64,000 nt of DNA from a virus (Duplodnaviria > Caudoviricetes): IMG/VR virus record IMGVR_UViG_2900588628_000001, positions 29,161 through 93,160 of that record, one strand, 5' to 3'. The translations under genes were made by a program, and so were the position numbers. Below the pieces are notes generated by a model. The model did not search any database. It was not told where the DNA came from and saw nothing but the letters and a program-made list of their open reading frames with translations. Shown here piece after piece: positions 20,170-59,923 of this stretch. How positions within the stretch are numbered: position 1 is the stretch's first letter; every line of letters starts with the position of its first letter.

Positions 20170-20979
20170 ATGACTCACTACCCGATGAACAACACGGCCG
20201 CGAACGCACTGCGCGCGGCATTCGAGCGCGCGTACGAGCACGGTGACATACCCTTGCTCATGCCGCACGAGCCCGCGCAGCCGTCGCTCGCGCGTGTCTC
20301 GCCGACCACGAACGAGAGGGCGGCGCGCGTTATCGAGCGCTGCCGGTTCCACATTACCGGGTACGTGCTCAGTGACACATGGGAATTGCGCAAGGCCATC
20401 GTTGAGGAAGGCGCGGTGCGCTGGCTTCCCAATCGCGAGGATTTCACGCGCGTAATGCAATGGCAGGACACGAAAGGCCCGAACACGCCGCCCGATGAGG
20501 CAATCGGCGATGAGCTTATCGGCACGGCCGCGCAGGCCGTCAGCGCGCCGCCGATGGTTATCGCCGCGCCCGCTGCGCCGTCGCGCCCGGTTCTCACCGC
20601 GCCGCCGTCCGCGCGCCTGCTCGAATCGACAGAGGAAGCGCTTGGCGTGCTCGCGGGCGAGCTTGGATGCGTTCGCAACGAGGATATCCCGCACAACGCG
20701 GGCTGGTTCGTGCCCGGCAAGGCCAAAGCCTACGCCAGCGCGCTCGATGCCATCAAAGGGCTGGTTTCGAGCCTGAAAGCGGGCGGAACGGTGTATGAGA
20801 AAAAGGCCGCCGCGCCAAAGGCTGATGTGCCGGGCGACGTCGCCCACACAGACGCGATGCTTGGACGCGTCGCGAGTGAAATCAGCCAGGTACGTTTCGA
20901 CAATGAAAAGGCCGGGCTGACTGCGCCGGTCAAGAAAAAGAGCGCGCCCGTCGATGACAGACAGGACGCGCTTTTCTAG
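20170..20979 (+). CDS. hypothetical protein ending in QDALF
   Basis: 269 aa; last gene before the convergent collagen cassette. Confidence 0.7.
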   Translation: MTHYPMNNTAANALRAAFERAYEHGDIPLLMPHEPAQPSLARVSPTTNERAARVIERCRFHITGYVLSDTWELRKAIVEEGAVRWLPNREDFTRVMQWQDTKGPNTPPDEAIGDELIGTAAQAVSAPPMVIAAPAAPSRPVLTAPPSARLLESTEEALGVLAGELGCVRNEDIPHNAGWFVPGKAKAYASALDAIKGLVSSLKAGGTVYEKKAAAPKADVPGDVAHTDAMLGRVASEISQVRFDNEKAGLTAPVKKKSAPVDDRQDALF

Positions 20980-21682
20980 GCGGGATTGAGCGCGACGTTG
21001 ATCGCGCCATACGCATACGACACGTTGAACGTGCCGGGCGCGGGAGTCTGCGCACCGGCCGCGACAGCCGCGTTAGAGAGCGCGCCGAACGACGATTCAG
21101 CATCGTAGTTCGAACCTTGGTTGTACTGTGACGTCGATGAGACGCCCATCGTATAACCGGCTGGCGGCGTGAACACATTCGACACGCTGCCCGAAAAACT
21201 CCCCCCTTGCCCCGCGATCAGCAGCAGATACAGCGCTTTCGGCAGCGTGATCGCAGGGAACACGCACGACGTCGCAGCCGTCGCCTTCTTCGTCACCGGA
21301 ACGACGGAATTGATCGGGTCGGACTGGTTGACGCCGGACAGATTCAGAATGCCGATGTTGACGGATTTGACCGTCGCGCCGCTGAATGTGTACGACGCGG
21401 GCTCGCTCGCGGTCGCGATCTTGTAGAAGCCGCCGATAAAGCCGTTGTCGTTGTGCGTGGTGAAAATGAGCGACGTGTGCAGCGTCCACCCCGCGCACGC
21501 GAGCGAGAGCGGGCTTTTCGTGTCATCGCAGGTGAACAGCGCATAGAGCAGGTTGCCCGCGACGATGCCGGACGGTGCCGGAATCGTCGCGCTGCTTGTC
21601 TGCGAGCCGCCGTTAGACGAAGACACTACCTGAATGCCCGAGCCTGCGGGCGGCGCGCGATAGCGCGTTACTGCGGGAATCA

Positions 21683-21686
<4 letters not shown>
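20976..21686 (-). CDS. beta-rich Ser/Thr/Gly protein, probable fibre-tip/adhesin module
   Basis: [26 protein letters not shown]; coupled to the collagen gene. Confidence 0.6.
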
Positions 21687-23943
<2,257 letters not shown>

Positions 23944-24141
23944 GGTGTGCAAAGCCTTGGAAGGTGGGCGATGGCCTGCCTGTACGCCTCTGCACGGTTG
24001 CCCTCACATGGATCAACTACGGAGCATCGTTGCGAAGTGCCGTAGCCGAGCTTGGTGCGTGAGCGCAGGGAGACAGGCCATCGCGGAAACGTGCGGCGGG
24101 GCGGCGCGCTTGCGTGATAACCCGTTAGGACTACTTAAGGC

Positions 24142-24169
24142 ATTTGACATAAACTAAATTATCAAACTC
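24142..24169 (-). other. dif: dif-like XerC/XerD recombination site
   Basis: - strand GAGTTTGATAA-TTTAGT-TTATGTCAAAT: 11-6-11 architecture; XerD arm one base from E. coli TTATGTTAAAT; intergenic. Confidence 0.8.
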
Positions 24170-24318
24170 TCAAATGCGAGTCGGTGAGAGTGCGCGAATC
24201 CGAATCAATTCCCATTGATCCGCTCGACCGTCCCCACGTTCGAGCGGCTATGCCGCGCATGTCCTGCGTTTGTTCTGCGGCACTTCGCGCTGCGGTTGGT
24301 CCCCATAACTCGACGTCA

Positions 24319-24377: not shown

Positions 24378-24407
24378 TTGACACAACCAAACGTGACAAC
24401 ATACATT
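24378..24407 (+). promoter_or_regulatory. sigma70-type promoter with CGTGACAACATAC motif
   Basis: TTGACA-N18-TACATT. Confidence 0.75.
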
Positions 24408-24631
24408 TGAGCCCTAGCAGCAATCTCGCTGCTTTGAACTAGATGAGGATTCCCATGCTTCTGCGCTCATTCAACTATCGCGACCACTCAATAATAATGA
24501 CCGCGCTGCGTGTGCAGTTTGTGCGCAGCGCTTCCGCCCAGGCGTGCCGAGCGGCACTGTCTGAGATAAGACCTCTGTATCAGAGGCACCGCACACGTAA
24601 GTCTCCAGACATATAGATTGCGGGAAAGAAA

Positions 24632-39117: not shown

Positions 39118-39128
39118 CGGTTTTCCTA
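39086..39128 (-). promoter_or_regulatory. putative late promoter downstream of terminase
   Basis: TAGGAAAAC-N28-GATAAT on - strand. Confidence 0.55.
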
Positions 39129-40679
39129 GTTCGCCGGCGCGGCGTTTTGTGCGGCCTGTTGCTGCAATCTCTCCATCACGCGAGCGCGCGCGGCGGCCTT
39201 GTTGTCGGCACCCGCGCCGGTGTCAAAGTCCTCTGCGAGCGAGACGGTCGCGTTCTCCAGAAAAACGAATGAGCATGTGTCCCAAATGTCCGGCGAGGGG
39301 ATGCCCTCTTTGCGCATGTCGTCTTTCTTCGCGATCACGCGGCGGGCCTTTTCGTCATAGCTGTAGGGAATGCGTGAGCCCTGTTCCACGAGCTTTTTGA
39401 CGAACGACTTAGGCACGTCCGCAGAGATACCGAACCGACCTTCCTGCACCGCGCGCGAGAGGCCGCAGATAGCCTGCGCACGCTGGTTGAAATACCGTTC
39501 CTTGTATTCCGTGGCGAAGTTCGGCGCGCCCCAATTGACCTTTGTGTAGTTGGCGAAGCCGTCAAGGTCCAGTTGCTTGCACACGATCAGGCCCATACCG
39601 CCCGCGTCGATCAGTGCGTTCGAGTTCGGTCGCTCGCGCGATTCCGTGATTACATGGCCGTGCAGTTCGGCCGGATTGATGGTGTTCGAGTGCAGCGGCA
39701 CGGTCGTAAGCTGCGCACGGCGCGCGTCCGGGCCGTATTCGCCCTGGCCGTTGACCTTGAACGCAGGCATAACCGACCAGTCGCGATAGCCGCCACCTGC
39801 GACGTCGAGCGGCAGCAGCCAGCCGTAAGGCTCGCCCGGCTTGATGACTTCGAGCCCGTATGCCGCCTCGATAGCTTTCGGACCAAGTAGAAAGCGGCTG
39901 CTGTTCTCAGGGAACTCGCCGAGCACCTTGATCGAATATTCTTCTTCGGTGTACTGCTGCCGCTTTTCCAGAATGAACGCGGCCGACACAATCGGCGATT
40001 CCTCGCTGTTGAACACGAGGGCATTCCACACGCCGCCATGATCGCGGCTCAGTTTGTGGTGCGTGTCGTAGAAAAAGCCCGTCGGCCGGGTCGGCTGCGA
40101 CGCAATGGCAATGCGGTTGTTCGCGTCCGTGAGGGAGCCGGTGATAACGCCGAAATTCGAGTCGGGAATACCCGACGCCTCATCGCCTAGCCACAGCAGC
40201 CAGTCACGGTGCGCACCTGCGAGGTTTTCAGGGGAGCCACGCGGCGCGGTCTTTGCGATGACAAACCAGTTGAGCTTGAAGCCCTTCACATAGACGCGCT
40301 CAGACTCAATCTCGAAATACTCCCTGATCCACGACTGCGGGCCGTTCTGGATTTTGGTCGAGAGGTCGGCGAACTCTTTCCAGACACCATCCGATACGGT
40401 CGTGATCTTCGGCGCGGTGAGGATTGTGTTCGAGCAGAAGTAACAGAGCAGGTGCCACAGGGCGATGATGGCAAAGCCCGACGTCTTGCCCGTACCGTGG
40501 CCCGACGATACCGAGGTGCGCGAGCCCGGATCACTGACGCTCTGGAATAGCTCGATCTGCTGCCACGTCGGCACAAGCCCGCATACCTCGATAGCGAAGC
40601 GCACGCAATCGAACGCGTACCGCTCGACAAACGAGCGATAGCGGGCGTCCAGCGGCAGCGAGATACGGGTTTGCGCCAC
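39126..40679 (-). CDS. terminase large subunit (P1 PacB-like)
   Basis: Walker A SGHGTGKT, Walker B DEASG, nuclease LDVAGGG and SPDIWD. Confidence 0.92.
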   Translation of the reverse strand: MAQTRISLPLDARYRSFVERYAFDCVRFAIEVCGLVPTWQQIELFQSVSDPGSRTSVSSGHGTGKTSGFAIIALWHLLCYFCSNTILTAPKITTVSDGVWKEFADLSTKIQNGPQSWIREYFEIESERVYVKGFKLNWFVIAKTAPRGSPENLAGAHRDWLLWLGDEASGIPDSNFGVITGSLTDANNRIAIASQPTRPTGFFYDTHHKLSRDHGGVWNALVFNSEESPIVSAAFILEKRQQYTEEEYSIKVLGEFPENSSRFLLGPKAIEAAYGLEVIKPGEPYGWLLPLDVAGGGYRDWSVMPAFKVNGQGEYGPDARRAQLTTVPLHSNTINPAELHGHVITESRERPNSNALIDAGGMGLIVCKQLDLDGFANYTKVNWGAPNFATEYKERYFNQRAQAICGLSRAVQEGRFGISADVPKSFVKKLVEQGSRIPYSYDEKARRVIAKKDDMRKEGIPSPDIWDTCSFVFLENATVSLAEDFDTGAGADNKAAARARVMERLQQQAAQNAAPAN

Positions 40680-41519
40680 TTACTCGCCCTGCCCGTTCTG
40701 TTCGCCTAGCTGCAATTCCGCCTGCTTGCGGGCCTCTGCCTCTGCACGAGCACGCGCCGCCCGCTCGATACCCTGCCGGTACACCTCGTTCAATTCGTCG
40801 GTTGTGGCGGTCGTGACGGCCGTCGTGACCTGCGCATCAACCTGCTCGCGCCATCCGGCGATGTTCTTCAGTGCAAGGGTTGCGAGGCGCGACTCATATT
40901 GGCCGCCCAAACCGCCCTCTTGAAGCAATGCCGACTGCAAATCCCGGCTACGCGCGTAGGCGTAAGAAAATTCCGGGTGCTTGAGGGTCTTACCGTCCTT
41001 TTCGGTCGCTACAGACCAGTCGTGAAGGGTCTGCCGCGTGCCCCCGATTGAGTCGGCGAAACGTTCGAGCGTCGGGAAGCGATTGAGCACGGTTTCAGTG
41101 ACCGTCATCGGCTTGCCTTCCTTATCGGCCTTGGTCACCTCTACTGAGCGCTCGACGTCAATGCGAAAGAACGCAAGGATCATGTCTACGAACTCATCGC
41201 GGTAGACAGTCGGCCGCCCTACCAGTCGCTTGAGCACGCTGGCCGTTTCTTTCTTCTCTACGGGCGGCATGGGTGCGGGCGTGCCGGCTTTCAGCGGATT
41301 CGCTCCCTTACGCTGCGCCGGTGCCTTGGCGGCCTTCCTAGCCGGTGCCTGCTTCGCCGGTGCGGCCTTCTTTGCGGGCACCTTGCGCGCCGCCTGAGGC
41401 TTTGCCTTCCCCTTAGGCGCGGGCGCATCTTTGCCCGGCTGCTTGGCGGGTTGATTCTCAGGTTGATCGTTTGCGCTCTTACCTGCGCGCCGCCCACCCG
41501 GTGTCTTGCGAGTTGCCAT
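40680..41519 (-). CDS. terminase small subunit with Lys/Ala/Pro-rich N-terminus
   Basis: GRPTVY...PTLERFA...RQTLHDW...HPEFSYAY...LKNIAGWRE; immediately upstream of TerL. Confidence 0.8.
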   Translation of the reverse strand: MATRKTPGGRRAGKSANDQPENQPAKQPGKDAPAPKGKAKPQAARKVPAKKAAPAKQAPARKAAKAPAQRKGANPLKAGTPAPMPPVEKKETASVLKRLVGRPTVYRDEFVDMILAFFRIDVERSVEVTKADKEGKPMTVTETVLNRFPTLERFADSIGGTRQTLHDWSVATEKDGKTLKHPEFSYAYARSRDLQSALLQEGGLGGQYESRLATLALKNIAGWREQVDAQVTTAVTTATTDELNEVYRQGIERAARARAEAEARKQAELQLGEQNGQGE

Positions 41520-53157: not shown

Positions 53158-54336
53158 ATGTGGTTTCGCAATCTCACCCTGTACTCGTTTTCGGACATGC
53201 CCGGCATAGACGGCCTCAACGAAGCGCTCGCGCGCCAGCGCTACGCGCCGTGCACGGACGTGCAGCACGAATCGTCGGGCTTCGTCGCCCCGCGTGGCGA
53301 GGATGCCTCGCTTGTGTTCGCCGTCGATAAGCACCTGATGATCGCGCTGTGCGTCGAGAAAAAGGTGCTGCCCGCGCCCGTCGTGCGCGATGAGCTTGCC
53401 AAGCGCCTCGCCGAGGTCGAGAAAAATCAGGGCTTCAAACCCGGCCGCAAACAGAAAGCCGAGATCCGCGAGGACGTCACGGACGCCCTGCTCTCGCAGG
53501 CGTTCTCAGTGCGCCGCACGGTGCGCGCGTGGATCGACATGGATGCCAGGCTGATCGCTCTCGATACGGCCTCGCAAACGGCCGCTGATCGCTTTGTGAC
53601 GCACCTGATCCGCGCGTTCGAAAGCGACATTGGCCTGCGCAAGCTGCAAACCGTGAAATCGGCCGTGGTGGCGATGACGGCATGGGTCGCCGACGAACCG
53701 CCGTTCGCCTTCACCATTGACGATGACACGACGTTTGCGGGCAACAACGGCGGCGCAGTGACCTACTCGAAAGTCAGCATCGAGCAAGAGGACGTCACGC
53801 GGCAAATCGAATCGGGCAAGTACGTCACGCGCCTCGCGCTCACGCACGCCGAACGCCTCTCGTTCGTGTTTTCGTCGGGTTTCGTGCTGCGCCGCATCGC
53901 GCCGCTCGACGTGCTCAAAGAGCCGGGCGGCAAGGATGAGCCGTCGGCCGCCGCCGATTTCCTGCTGCTGGCCGCTACCCTCGCATCCCTCGTGCGTGCG
54001 CTCATCGACTCGCTCGACGGCATCGCCACGGCCGCCGACCTGGCCGACGAACCGGACACCGGCGAGGCCGACACCGCTGACGTCGATGCAACGGGCGAGC
54101 CCGCGCAGGACGGCGTCGAGCCGCCGCCCGCCTACGTCTATGACGACTCGCTGTGCGAACAGGCGAAAACCATCGTGATCGGCCATCGTCGCGCGTCAAT
54201 CTCGCTCGTGCAGCGGCACCTGCGCATCGGCTATAACCGGGCCGCCGCGATTCTGGAGGAACTGGAAAAGGCAGGCATCGTCAGCCCGATGACGACGGGC
54301 AGCGAGCGCCGCGTGCTCGTGAGCGGGGTGAAGTGA
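53158..54336 (+). CDS. rdgC: RdgC fused to a C-terminal FtsK-gamma domain
   Basis: MWFRNLTLY...EKKVLPAPVV RdgC signature; C-terminal ASISLVQRHLRIGYNRAAAILEELEKAGIVS. Confidence 0.9.
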   Translation: MWFRNLTLYSFSDMPGIDGLNEALARQRYAPCTDVQHESSGFVAPRGEDASLVFAVDKHLMIALCVEKKVLPAPVVRDELAKRLAEVEKNQGFKPGRKQKAEIREDVTDALLSQAFSVRRTVRAWIDMDARLIALDTASQTAADRFVTHLIRAFESDIGLRKLQTVKSAVVAMTAWVADEPPFAFTIDDDTTFAGNNGGAVTYSKVSIEQEDVTRQIESGKYVTRLALTHAERLSFVFSSGFVLRRIAPLDVLKEPGGKDEPSAAADFLLLAATLASLVRALIDSLDGIATAADLADEPDTGEADTADVDATGEPAQDGVEPPPAYVYDDSLCEQAKTIVIGHRRASISLVQRHLRIGYNRAAAILEELEKAGIVSPMTTGSERRVLVSGVK

Positions 54337-55852: not shown

Positions 55853-55895
55853 TGCCCCTTCCTGTATTGCCTCACCTGTACGCATAACGTGGGAC

Positions 55896-56366
55896 TGATA
55901 CCAGTTGGTATCAAACACACGTTATGCCCTGCCTCAACACCTCGCCTGATCGAACGCGGCGCGCGTCACTGATACCAGTTGGTATTAGACACACCAGACC
56001 TTTTTCTATTTGTCCCCGTCTAGGGTGCTCTTACCTGTTTATTTTTTATTGCCTCGCATTTGGTCCAAGCCGCTTCAATGTGTTTTTGTTTGTTTTGAAC
56101 AAACTCAAGCACTATTGAACGGGCCAAACCATGTCTAAACCTATCAAATAGGTTCTTTTTGCTCATTGTTTGTTGAGTTGCGCTTGTATTGGACCCGATC
56201 CAGACCGTAAAGAGCAGGCAACACCCGAAAAGAACAGAAAAAAGGAAATCCGTTGCTTTTGGCCGTAATCCTGTGTCGTGTTGCGGGTTCGCGTAGGGTT
56301 TAGACAGAGAAAGTCAGAAAACGTCTGAAACCCCTTGCGGTGCGGGCGTGATACCAGTTGGTATCA
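55896..56366. repeat. 18-bp palindromes TGATACCAGTTGGTATCA (candidate centromere/parS)
   Basis: Copies at 55896, 55970 (1 mismatch) and 56349; a fourth at ~53085 upstream of rdgC. Confidence 0.7.
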
Positions 56367-56438
56367 ATCACACTCGCATCAACCATATGTGTCATGTTCC
56401 CGTCGCCTCACAAACCATATAGGGCGGGGCTATCCGGC

Positions 56439-56467
56439 TTGTAGTGACATAGATAAATCAATACACT
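56439..56467 (+). promoter_or_regulatory. parA promoter
   Basis: TTGTAG-N17-TACACT. Confidence 0.55.
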
Positions 56468-56499
56468 GCGCGACATACCAAACCAATAGAGGTCGCGTC

Positions 56500-57159
56500 A
56501 TGTCGATTACCGTCGTAGCTCACCCGAAAGGAGGCGTGAGCAAAACAACCACCGCCGTCAACCTCGCTGTCATGGCCATGTCGGCCGGGCGCGACGTCCT
56601 GCTGGTGGATAGCGACACCGGGCAATCGGCACGCCGGTTTGCCAGCAAGCGCGCGAAAGCGCCCGGTTTGCCCTTTGTCGAGTGCGTGCCGCTGTTCGAC
56701 AACGATGGCGACTACCACCGCCAGCTATCCGCGCTGGCCGCACGCCATGATGAGGTCATTGTGGACGTGGGCGGCGAAGGGCAGGGCGCGCGGGAAATCC
56801 GCCTCGCGCTGACCGTCGCGCATCGCGTGCTGACGCCGTGCCGCCCGTCGCCCGCCGACATTGAGCGACTCGACATGATGCACGGCATGGTCGAACTGGC
56901 CCGCGACCTGAATCCCGGCCTCGATGCAATGCTGTTCCCGGTTCAGGCATCGACCAACGCCAAAGCGACCGACGTGGACACGTTCTACGAAAAAGCCGTC
57001 AAGTTCCCGCAATTCCGCCTGCTCGATTCCGTCGTGTGCATGCGCGACGCCTACAAGCCGTGGGCCGACACCGGCGAGGCGGTATTCGAACAGGCCAAGC
57101 TGGACAAAAAAGCGATGGCCGAAATGACCAAACTGTACAAAGAGGTTTTCAATGGCTGA
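56500..57159 (+). CDS. parA: type Ib ParA partition ATPase
   Basis: Deviant Walker A KGGVSKTT; LLVDSD; VIVDVG; no N-terminal HTH; GAGG RBS before ATG 56500. Confidence 0.92.
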   Translation: MSITVVAHPKGGVSKTTTAVNLAVMAMSAGRDVLLVDSDTGQSARRFASKRAKAPGLPFVECVPLFDNDGDYHRQLSALAARHDEVIVDVGGEGQGAREIRLALTVAHRVLTPCRPSPADIERLDMMHGMVELARDLNPGLDAMLFPVQASTNAKATDVDTFYEKAVKFPQFRLLDSVVCMRDAYKPWADTGEAVFEQAKLDKKAMAEMTKLYKEVFNG

Positions 57160-58250: not shown

Positions 58251-58596
58251 TTATCCAGAAAGGGTTTGCGGGGAGATAGAGCATAGTTTGCGGGACGTCA
58301 GAGCATACTCTGCGGGACGTCCTTTGAGGGATAGAGCATAGTCTGCGGGATAGAGCATAGTTTGCGGGATGCTCGCGAAAACAGCCCCGTAAACGCGCGC
58401 AACACTATGATTTATAACGATATTTACGCACTTATGGGGTATAGGTGTATCTATATTGAGCATAGTTTGCGGGATAAAGAGCATAGTTTGCGGGATGCCC
58501 GGTGCACCGCGAGCCCATAGAGCATAGTTTGCGGGATGAGCGCGGGAGATAGAGCATAGTCTGCGGGATGAGTCGCATAGAGCATAGTTTGCGGGA
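58251..58596 (+). repeat. plasmid replication origin: nine ~20-bp iterons, AT-rich gap, DnaA-like box
   Basis: ATAGAGCATAGT(T/C)TGCGGGA-type repeats at 58276, 58298, 58331, 58350, 58455, 58476, 58517, 58549, 58577; TTATCCAGA at 58251. Confidence 0.9.
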
Positions 58597-58604
58597 TAGC
58601 ACAA

Positions 58605-58675: not shown

Positions 58676-59923
58676 ATGGGGAGAGTCAAACAGGCCGAAA
58701 AGATCAAGATCGACGTGATGCCCGCCGAGGTGCGTTCGGCCGAACTCGCCAAGCTGGATGAACGCGAGTTGCGCAAGCACGTCGCGGCCATTCACGTCAG
58801 CGGCAATCTTTCGCTCGTTGAACGCAAGATCGTGAATGTGCTGCTGCTGCACGCTTACGATGATCTGCTCACGAAGCGCGAGCACACAATCTCGGTCAGG
58901 TTCCTGTGTGAAGCCATCGGATGGGAAGCGAGCAACGATCACAAGAAACTCGCGCAGGCCGCCGAGAACATCATGCACAACATCGTCACGCTGAACATGT
59001 TCGCGGACGGCAAAGAGGATTGGAAGAAAACGCCGCTCGTCTCGTCTATCGGCGTGAAAGATGGCCGCGTGACCTACGCATATATCGAATGGCTCGCAGA
59101 GCGCTATGCGCACCCTGAGGTGTTCGCCGCCATCGACATTAAGATGCAGCGCCGGTTCAAAAGCCAGTATGCCCTTGCGCTTTACGAGAACTGCCTGCGC
59201 TATCGCAAGATCGGACAGACCCGGTATGCGCCCGTCGATACGTGGCGCGAACTGCTAGGCGCGACGGGCAAAATGTACGAGCAGTATCGGCACTTCTCGA
59301 ACTTCGTGCTGCAAAAGGCAATCAAGGAAGTCAACGCCGTATCGGATATCGACGTCGAATTGCGGTTCAAGAAAGAGGGCCGCACAGTCACCGAACTGCA
59401 ATTCGGCGTGACTGAAAAAGCCCAGGCGGAACTCCCGTTCGAGGTGGACCCGAAAGAGGCGATGCTGCGCGAGCAGTTGACGGCCATCGGCTTCGGTGAG
59501 TCGAGCATCAAGAGCATTCTCTCGAAAAACCTGCCGCGTGCCGCGCTCGCGATCAAGGTCACGCTGGAACGCGAGGCGGCCGGAAAAATCACCGGGTCGG
59601 CGTCGGGCTACTTCATGAGCGTGTTCGAAAGCGATTCGCCGCTTGACCTGCCTGAACGCACGCAAAAGAAAGCCCGCAAAGCGCCCGCGCTGCCGTCGGC
59701 CGATGAGGTCAAGGCGGATAAGCAGGCGGCCGTTACGCGGGGCGCGTGGGGCAAGCTGACGGACGCGGAGAAGGAGGCTTTGACGGTCGAGTTTGTCGAG
59801 AAGACGGGCGCAGAGACGCGCATCGCGGGCAAACACGAGTTCGCCAACATCGCGGAAAAGGCCTACTGGACCGGCTATCGCGGCAAGCGCGCCGCTGAAA
59901 TTATCGCGAGCCGCAAGGCGTAG
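58676..59923 (+). CDS. repA: Rep_3-family plasmid replication initiator
   Basis: LSLVERKIVNVLL...FKSQYALALYE...VLQKAIKEVN...KEGRTV; adjacent to iterons. Confidence 0.92.
   Translation: MGRVKQAEKIKIDVMPAEVRSAELAKLDERELRKHVAAIHVSGNLSLVERKIVNVLLLHAYDDLLTKREHTISVRFLCEAIGWEASNDHKKLAQAAENIMHNIVTLNMFADGKEDWKKTPLVSSIGVKDGRVTYAYIEWLAERYAHPEVFAAIDIKMQRRFKSQYALALYENCLRYRKIGQTRYAPVDTWRELLGATGKMYEQYRHFSNFVLQKAIKEVNAVSDIDVELRFKKEGRTVTELQFGVTEKAQAELPFEVDPKEAMLREQLTAIGFGESSIKSILSKNLPRAALAIKVTLEREAAGKITGSASGYFMSVFESDSPLDLPERTQKKARKAPALPSADEVKADKQAAVTRGAWGKLTDAEKEALTVEFVEKTGAETRIAGKHEFANIAEKAYWTGYRGKRAAEIIASRKA

Follow-up and report, generated by a model that had tools for sequence, protein, structure and literature searches.

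A dif-type site on a P1-like phage-plasmid of Paraburkholderia, a probable target of host XerCD in place of Cre-loxP

The stretch of DNA analysed here (the window) comprises the last 64 kb of contig C141 in a genome of 9.7 Mb with 61.5% G+C. In a gap between divergently oriented genes it contains a 28-bp sequence with the layout of a dif site, in which two 11-bp arms flank a 6-bp central region and the inner ends show TAA/TTA dyad symmetry (Table 1); on the plus strand it reads ATTTGACATAA ACTAAA TTATCAAACTC. The original prediction had described an AT-rich 11-6-11 site on the minus strand of an intergenic gap, and both the sequence and the gap agree with it exactly. On the left, the gap is bounded by a minus-strand fibre module of three genes (20976-23952), whose first gene starts at 23943 or 23952, so that the site lies upstream of this gene at a distance of 190-200 bp; on the right, the plus-strand genes start at 24443 or 24632, and the first plus-strand ORFs are at least 270 bp from the site. 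The fibre module includes a 617-aa fibre-like protein with collagen repeats, encoded by the minus-strand ORF 21683-23536 (Pfam Collagen 1e-73; tail-fibre PHROGs to 1e-102), whose gene is preceded by that of a 136/139-aa protein (phrog_1084). A 655-aa plus-strand ORF (22190-24157), whose stop falls inside the site, has no Pfam match and was rejected as a gene because the ORF opposite it matches Collagen and the tail-fibre PHROGs; it is an antisense shadow of the collagen-like fibre gene. The site is also bracketed by a perfect 8-nt inverted repeat, GCATTTGA / TCAAATGC (24140-24147 and 24170-24177), which is not present in the related plasmid pBVIE05 and is possibly due to chance.

Table 1. Coordinates of the site and of other features of the element (positions in the window)
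Feature	Position	Strand	Sequence, evidence or remark
GTTAGGACT box	24124..24132	+	AGTCCTAAC on the site's strand; 8-9 nt outside the XerD arm
dif-type Xer site, 28 bp	24142..24169	-	GAGTTTGATAA TTTAGT TTATGTCAAAT, 11-6-11
XerD arm	24152-24142	-	TTATGTCAAAT; part of the 28-bp site
Central region	24158-24153	-	TTTAGT; part of the 28-bp site
XerC arm	24169-24159	-	GAGTTTGATAA; part of the 28-bp site
RdgC fused to a C-terminal FtsK gamma domain	53158..54336	+	Pfam RdgC 8e-78 (residues 1-288), FtsK_gamma 2e-22 (residues 329-388)
Palindrome TGATACCAGTTGGTATCA, three copies	55891, 55965, 56344		around the parA start (55891-56373)
ParA-type partition ATPase	56335..57159	+	three palindromes around the start of its gene
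Iteron origin	58276..58604	+	nine copies of AGAGCATAGTYTGCGGGA; directly upstream of the rep gene; GC-skew minimum here
Rep3-family replication initiator	58676..59923	+	Pfam Rep3_N 2e-20, Rep3_C 2e-15

The contig as a whole is a complete closed circle of 93,083 bp (77-bp terminal overlap), and the element is a P1-like phage-plasmid, distantly related to P1. No DNA similarity between C141 and P1 was found; its terminase (genes 39126-41519) is 36% identical to P1 PacB, and baseplate, tail and tail-fibre PHROGs accompany the large terminase. In addition, it has Dar-like genes, namely one for a DarA_N protein and one for a DarB-like SNF2 helicase beside a methylase, as in P1 Dar. The original prediction of a P1-like phage-plasmid is therefore borne out on both counts, by the PacB-type terminase and the Dar-like genes for its P1-like nature and by the circular contig, the Rep3 initiator, the nine iterons and ParA for its plasmid state. 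The three palindromes around the parA start are likely parS or a par operator, and C141 also encodes an ERF / YqaJ / RdgC recombination block.

The host of the element is Paraburkholderia, and the exact 11-mer TTATGTCAAAT occurs six times in its 9.7-Mb genome, five times with the TAA-N6-TTA geometry of dif. Two of these five sites, AACGTCGCTAA TTTATC TTATGTCAAAT at C202:36176 and AACGTCGCTAA TTTATG TTATGTCAAAT at C213:85020, coincide exactly with the maxima of cumulative GC skew on their own contigs, and at both of them the polarity of the GGGNAGGG motif switches strand; these are the chromosomal dif sites. When the phage-plasmid site is aligned with them, its XerD arm is identical at all 11 positions. 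The dif sites of B. mallei likewise end in TTATGTCAAAT (Carnoy and Roten 2009, PMC2731167), so the Burkholderia XerD arm quoted in the original prediction was right. The XerC arm matches the host chromosomal arm at 6 of 11 positions and that of B. mallei at 7 of 11, and its inner TGATAA is the form common on Burkholderiaceae secondary replicons. The earlier label "chromosome-type" fits the XerD arm and the 6-bp spacer but not the XerC arm, which ends in ..TTGATAA, as on plasmids and chromids, rather than in the ..GTCGCTAA of the host chromosome.

Across the genus, exact TAA-N6-arm sites are present in 33 of 41 genomes, at one to five per genome, and a control search with the reversed pattern gave none. 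In one of these Paraburkholderia genomes, the dif-like sites have exactly the coordinates of those in the P. largidicola PGU16 records. On contig C5 of the host, the site has the central region TTAAGA, which is found again at sites in other genomes of the genus; the C5 site probably marks a conserved secondary replicon. The fifth site with dif geometry, CCCGGTGATAA AAAGCG TTATGTCAAAT (C165:21830-21857, minus strand), adjoins two tyrosine recombinase genes (C165:22551 and 23860) near a GC-skew switch, and sites of its class (CCGGTGATAA AAAACC ...) are also present in the circular IMG/VR contigs L056, L126, L098 and L152. The five sites of the genome have five different central regions, and of 66 listed sites in the genus, none has TTTAGT. 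Replicons that share a cell avoid fusion by keeping their central regions divergent (Val et al. 2008, PMC2533119), and five differing central regions are as expected under this rule.

The enzymes for such a site are encoded by the host, which has XerC (TIGR02224, 345 bits; cut-off 335), XerD (TIGR02225, 368 bits; cut-off 330) and two FtsK proteins with gamma domains. A further ORF of 442 aa with an FtsK gamma domain (C202:36581-37909, plus strand; = L042:1135-2463) is located about 380 bp from the C202 chromosomal dif; it has no NCBIfam match and may be the gene of a dif-associated mobile element. Another local feature is a CGACATT(T/A) box about 20 nt outside the XerC arm of chromosomal and chromid dif sites of Burkholderiaceae (C202, C213, C5; L036, L037, L073, L143, L161), with the full form CGACATTTC at C202, C213 and C5; it is absent at the phage-plasmid sites.

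The phage-plasmid sequence might alternatively be an attP-like sequence of the IMEX type, serving integration at host dif or the formation of co-integrates rather than dimer resolution. The first four bases of its central region, on the XerC side, are TTTA, as in the chromosomal TTTATC and TTTATG, and in VGJ-type IMEX such four-base sharing is enough for XerC-mediated exchange. Several IMG/VR prophage-like contigs end at Burkholderia chromosomal dif, so mobile elements do use dif in this group. However, the last two bases of TTTAGT differ from those of every host site, and each chromosomal contig has a single dif, with neither a hybrid site nor a second copy. The full maintenance set of C141 (Rep3, iterons, ParA) and its closed-circle assembly also argue against an attP, as does the closest relative, pBVIE05, an 88-kb plasmid of Burkholderia vietnamiensis G4 that is free and circular in a finished genome. 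Integration or co-integrate formation by way of this site is therefore very unlikely to be its purpose.

No recombinase of the element's own was detected. A six-frame Pfam search with Phage_integrase (PF00589) and Resolvase (PF00239) returned 21 and 5 matches, respectively, in the whole genome and none to a tyrosine or serine recombinase on C141; P1 Cre was recovered at 115 bits as a control for Phage_integrase, and the negative result applies to Pfam-detectable enzymes, as a more diverged recombinase would be missed. The absence of a recombinase claimed for the window thus holds for the whole 93-kb replicon, the remainder of which has neither Cre nor a resolvase by this search. Moreover, no loxP-like 13-8-13 site with up to three mismatches was found in the 64 kb of C141 that make up the window.

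Conservation of the site in related elements was assessed with pBVIE05, whose terminase is 75.6% identical to that of C141. This plasmid has exactly one such site, CTGTTCGATAA TTGTAT TTATGTCAAAT, kept at the syntenic place, where it closely follows the methyltransferase gene that C141 also has; its distance from the shared iterons is about 32 kb, compared with 34.1 kb in C141. When the intergenic DNA of the two plasmids is aligned, the site and the AGTCCTAAC box stand out as a conserved island within surroundings that are barely alignable. The box, at the same offset, is common to C141, pBVIE05 and PPGU16_p3, a non-phage Paraburkholderia plasmid, with the remaining flank unalignable; it was not found as a repeated motif elsewhere in the window and is possibly a site for an accessory protein. 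The fibre module of C141, by comparison, is absent from pBVIE05 and represents an insertion between the methyltransferase gene and the dif site, and since pBVIE05 retains the site, the site is no part of that module. Insertion of the module by Xer recombination was considered and rejected, as there is a single site and the homology breaks 40-190 bp from it. The two plasmids share the iteron core AGAGCATAGTTTGCGG (in pBVIE05 upstream of repB; L163 ~21900-22950) and are probably incompatible. In addition, pBVIE05 encodes a small serine recombinase, which could act as its resolvase and not as a Cin-like invertase.

A more distant relative, pPRS08-11306 of Pseudomonas psychrotolerans (terminase 48% identical), carries ACTTCGCATAA TACCGA TTATGTTAAAG, and a profile search found neither a tyrosine nor a serine recombinase on it. 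Compared with the P. aeruginosa dif, GATTCGCATAA TGTATA TTATGTTAAAT, its arms match at 9 of 11 and 10 of 11 positions, which indicates that the arms of the site follow the host. Among 14 P1-like elements, a site is present in three of the five without a tyrosine recombinase and in none of the nine with one (three Pseudomonas plasmids, P1, and plasmids of Aeromonas, Pantoea, Photobacterium, Vibrio and Serratia), a contrast that overstates the evidence because the elements are related rather than independent, and which we take as an indication rather than a test. Xanthomonas phage Rb1 and an Acinetobacter defluvii plasmid are the two elements that lack both a tyrosine recombinase and a site, and each of them encodes a serine recombinase. 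A weak dif-like match on the plasmid of P. fluorescens DR133 was dismissed as chance, its "XerC arm" being the end of a gene. Besides C141, the carriers among P1-like relatives are one close and one distant element. A search of 400 family genomes for the 139-aa neighbour protein gave one weak match and no further close relatives, and a terminase scan of genome contigs gave distant relatives only (up to 61% identity). Two other leads were set aside: a generic dif pattern was too noisy in the AT-rich hosts among eight distant-relative genomes, and a Logan contig found by exact-protein look-up, 100% identical across the gap, comes from the same isolate and provides no independent support.

Sites of this type are not confined to phage-plasmids. 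A short blastn search against PLSDB identified 17 plasmids and chromids of Burkholderia, Paraburkholderia and Caballeronia with the same XerD arm, a 6-bp spacer and an XerC arm ending in ..TTGATAA or ..TTGCTAA, and every one of these sites lies in a stretch without an annotated gene. Such replicons, for example pBVIE01, pKJ006, PPGU16_p3, pMSMB0852 and a 2-Mb replicon of P. caribensis, resemble C141 in XerD arm, type of XerC arm and spacer, but they are conjugative plasmids or chromids and not phages. A scan of IMG/VR for GATAA-N6-TTATGTCAAAT found at least 116 contigs, with pBVIE05 the only P1-like one among the matches listed, and many further sites of this type are in viral contigs of high G+C.

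These distributions also bear on whether the sequence could be an AT-rich regulatory element, such as a promoter, an operator or part of the long 5' leader of a late fibre transcript, whose likeness to dif is accidental. Its location is a divergent regulatory gap, it contains TTGACA and it is surrounded by the 8-nt inverted repeat, all of which would suit regulation. On the other hand, a promoter scan of the gap found no promoter-like hexamer pair overlapping the 28 bp, and the only good pair belongs to a sigma-70-like promoter at 24378-24407, 210 bp from the site. The invariant part of the sequence corresponds exactly to the XerD arm of the host in dif geometry; the same site is present on unrelated plasmids and chromids; and pBVIE05, which has no fibre module, still keeps it. 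Coincidence is also at odds with the count, since 100 shuffles predict 0.05 occurrences of TAA-N6-TTATGTCAAAT per window when up to two mismatches are tolerated, and one is observed. A regulatory origin of the sequence is thus highly improbable.

With respect to its place on the replicon, the site had been predicted to lie about 34 kb from the iteron origin, and the measured distance is 34.1 kb one way round the circle and 59.0 kb the other. The accompanying description as a terminus-like position is only loosely true: the maximum of cumulative GC skew is about 10 kb away, and the antipode of the origin is at 46.5 kb. In both C141 and pBVIE05 the cumulative GC-skew minimum coincides with the iterons, and a distance of 7-10 kb separates the site from the maximum, which lies to one side of it in C141 and to the other in pBVIE05. 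With the origin placed at the iterons, GGGNAGGG (KOPS) points toward the site in 12 of 14 cases in C141 and 11 of 13 in pBVIE05, or 23 of 27 pooled, against a background of 68% for other G-rich words of the same composition (pooled P ~0.04). A count of 14 of 14 on C141 was obtained only when the origin was placed post hoc and was discarded. The KOPS polarity is thus a weak sign of guidance by FtsK.

Taken together, the 28-bp sequence is probably a multimer-resolution site at which a P1-like phage-plasmid uses the XerCD of its host, in replacement of Cre-loxP. Homologous recombination between sister copies of a low-copy 93-kb plasmid would produce a dimer, and on each copy XerD would bind the perfect TTATGTCAAAT arm and XerC the GAGTTTGATAA arm. 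After synapsis of the two sites, strand exchange in two pairs at the borders of the central region would restore monomers. Resolution would probably depend on FtsK, as in the chromosomal pathway, with septal FtsK translocating toward the site and activating XerD for the first strand exchange; what points to this pathway is that the spacer measures 6 bp, that the XerD arm is perfect and that no accessory DNA is clearly conserved on the XerC side. The unique central region TTTAGT would prevent the plasmid from fusing with host replicons, which have other central regions at their dif sites. Binding and catalysis by XerCD, dependence on FtsK and a role in plasmid stability are what we infer for the site.

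Among known systems, the closest parallel is the dif of chromosomes and chromids (E. coli dif, V. cholerae dif1 and dif2, Burkholderia dif), which shares with the present site the 11-6-11 layout, a single copy per replicon, an XerD arm identical to that of the host, a replicon-specific central region, a KOPS-like polarity that tends toward the site and no conserved accessory DNA on the XerC side. Unlike chromosomal dif, the site described here belongs to a 93-kb temperate phage genome with an iteron origin, lies off the antipode, has a diverged XerC arm (6-7 of 11) and is accompanied by the conserved AGTCCTAAC box beside its XerD arm. The ColE1 cer and pSC101 psi sites are likewise plasmid-borne and use host XerCD for multimer resolution, but they require some 180 bp of accessory DNA next to the XerC arm together with PepA and ArgR or ArcA, they are independent of FtsK, and cer has a spacer of 8 bp instead of 6 bp. 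A search for a conserved XerC-side flank of the cer/psi kind, comparing C141 with pBVIE05, found one short, weakly similar stretch, with the rest unalignable. IMEX (CTX-phi, VGJ-phi, and TLC-phi with XafT) are also phages with a dif-like site that use host XerCD, but these are small elements that integrate at dif and lack functions for plasmid maintenance, whereas C141 is a 93-kb autonomous replicon of which no integrated copy was found. In the pdif modules of Acinetobacter, a gene module is enclosed by paired sites of alternating orientation, in contrast to the entire C141 replicon, which has one dif-type site even when up to seven mismatches are allowed.

P1 is the textbook plasmid prophage with its own resolution system. 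It resembles C141 in being a myovirus-type plasmid prophage with one recombination site per genome and presumably the same task, the conversion of dimers to monomers; unlike P1, C141 has neither Cre nor, in the window, loxP, and its enzyme would be supplied by the host and probably coupled to division via FtsK. P1 packages its DNA by headful, and Cre-lox can cyclise genomes whose terminal redundancy includes lox. With its PacB-type terminase, C141 might use the site mainly in this way, to cyclise infecting, terminally redundant phage DNA instead of resolving dimers. In P1, however, lox is close to pac, while the present site is about 16 kb from the terminase genes, which would place it inside the terminal redundancy of only a minority of headfuls. 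In addition, the element's own annealing/exonuclease pair, ERF and YqaJ, can cyclise redundant ends, and FtsK-dependent Xer recombination is tied to the septum. As the main function of the site, cyclisation is the least probable of all the explanations considered here; as a side role, it is possible.

The alternative to which we give the most weight, though still an unlikely one, concerns the activator of XerD. C141 itself encodes an RdgC protein with a C-terminal FtsK gamma domain, and the XerCD target might be activated by this fusion, instead of or besides septal FtsK, in analogy to XafT of TLC-phi, a phage that comes with an XerD activator of its own; this would uncouple resolution, or some other Xer reaction on phage DNA, from cell division. 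The gamma part of the fusion matches the solved FtsK gamma structures 2J5O, 2VE8 and 5DCF and shares 62% identity with a host FtsK gamma. Its ..RRA loop is retained and aligns with the XerD-contact loop of E. coli FtsK, whose role was reportedly described by Yates in 2006 and Keller in 2016. At the position aligned with the KOPS-contact arginine of E. coli FtsK, the fusion has alanine. In the survey of P1-like elements (n=14), a gamma domain is encoded by all three with a dif site and by 2 of the 11 without one. Moreover, the isolated gamma domain suffices for activation of XerCD-dif in E. coli (Grainge 2011, PMC3130261), which favours RdgC-gamma as an activator, but without the translocase the E. 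coli domain gives topologically complex products (PMC3130261), which speaks against it. The two P1-like elements with a gamma domain and no site also weaken the association, and the three elements that have both are related, so that their co-occurrence may be phylogenetic. Furthermore, the same architecture is widespread, in pBVIE05 and also in many large plasmids and in Pseudomonas, Achromobacter and Vibrio phages, thus including plasmids and phages beyond the dif-site survey, and for this reason a role of RdgC-gamma at the site is put forward as a hypothesis only. In its broader form, the hypothesis would have a clade of P1-like phage-plasmids of Burkholderiaceae and Pseudomonas exchange Cre-lox for XerCD-dif together with an XerD activator of their own, the FtsK gamma domain fused to RdgC, and here too we see little more than an outside chance. 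If true, Xer recombination could take place at a phage dif away from the septum, for dimer resolution or during lytic replication, and the fusion would be a tailed-phage counterpart of XafT.

The reading of the site as a target of host XerCD for multimer resolution has several implications for P1-like elements. No paper describing the use of Xer/dif by P1-like phage-plasmids was found in the literature. In the P1 community, Cre counts among the persistent genes (PMC7969092). The present findings suggest that distant P1-like elements of Burkholderiaceae and Pseudomonas can give up their recombinase and depend on host XerCD, with a site that follows the host. The practical novelty is modest, because Xer sites on plasmids have long been known and are common in Burkholderiaceae, and relying on host XerCD varies a known strategy in a tidy way that causes little surprise; if anything new comes of this case, it could be from the RdgC-gamma fusion that occurs alongside the site. 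Nevertheless, the use of host XerCD would explain how an element without a recombinase is stably inherited, and a host-type dif site may serve as a simple marker of host range for P1-like elements. With this site, tailed phage-plasmids would join the list of mobile elements that exploit Xer recombination.
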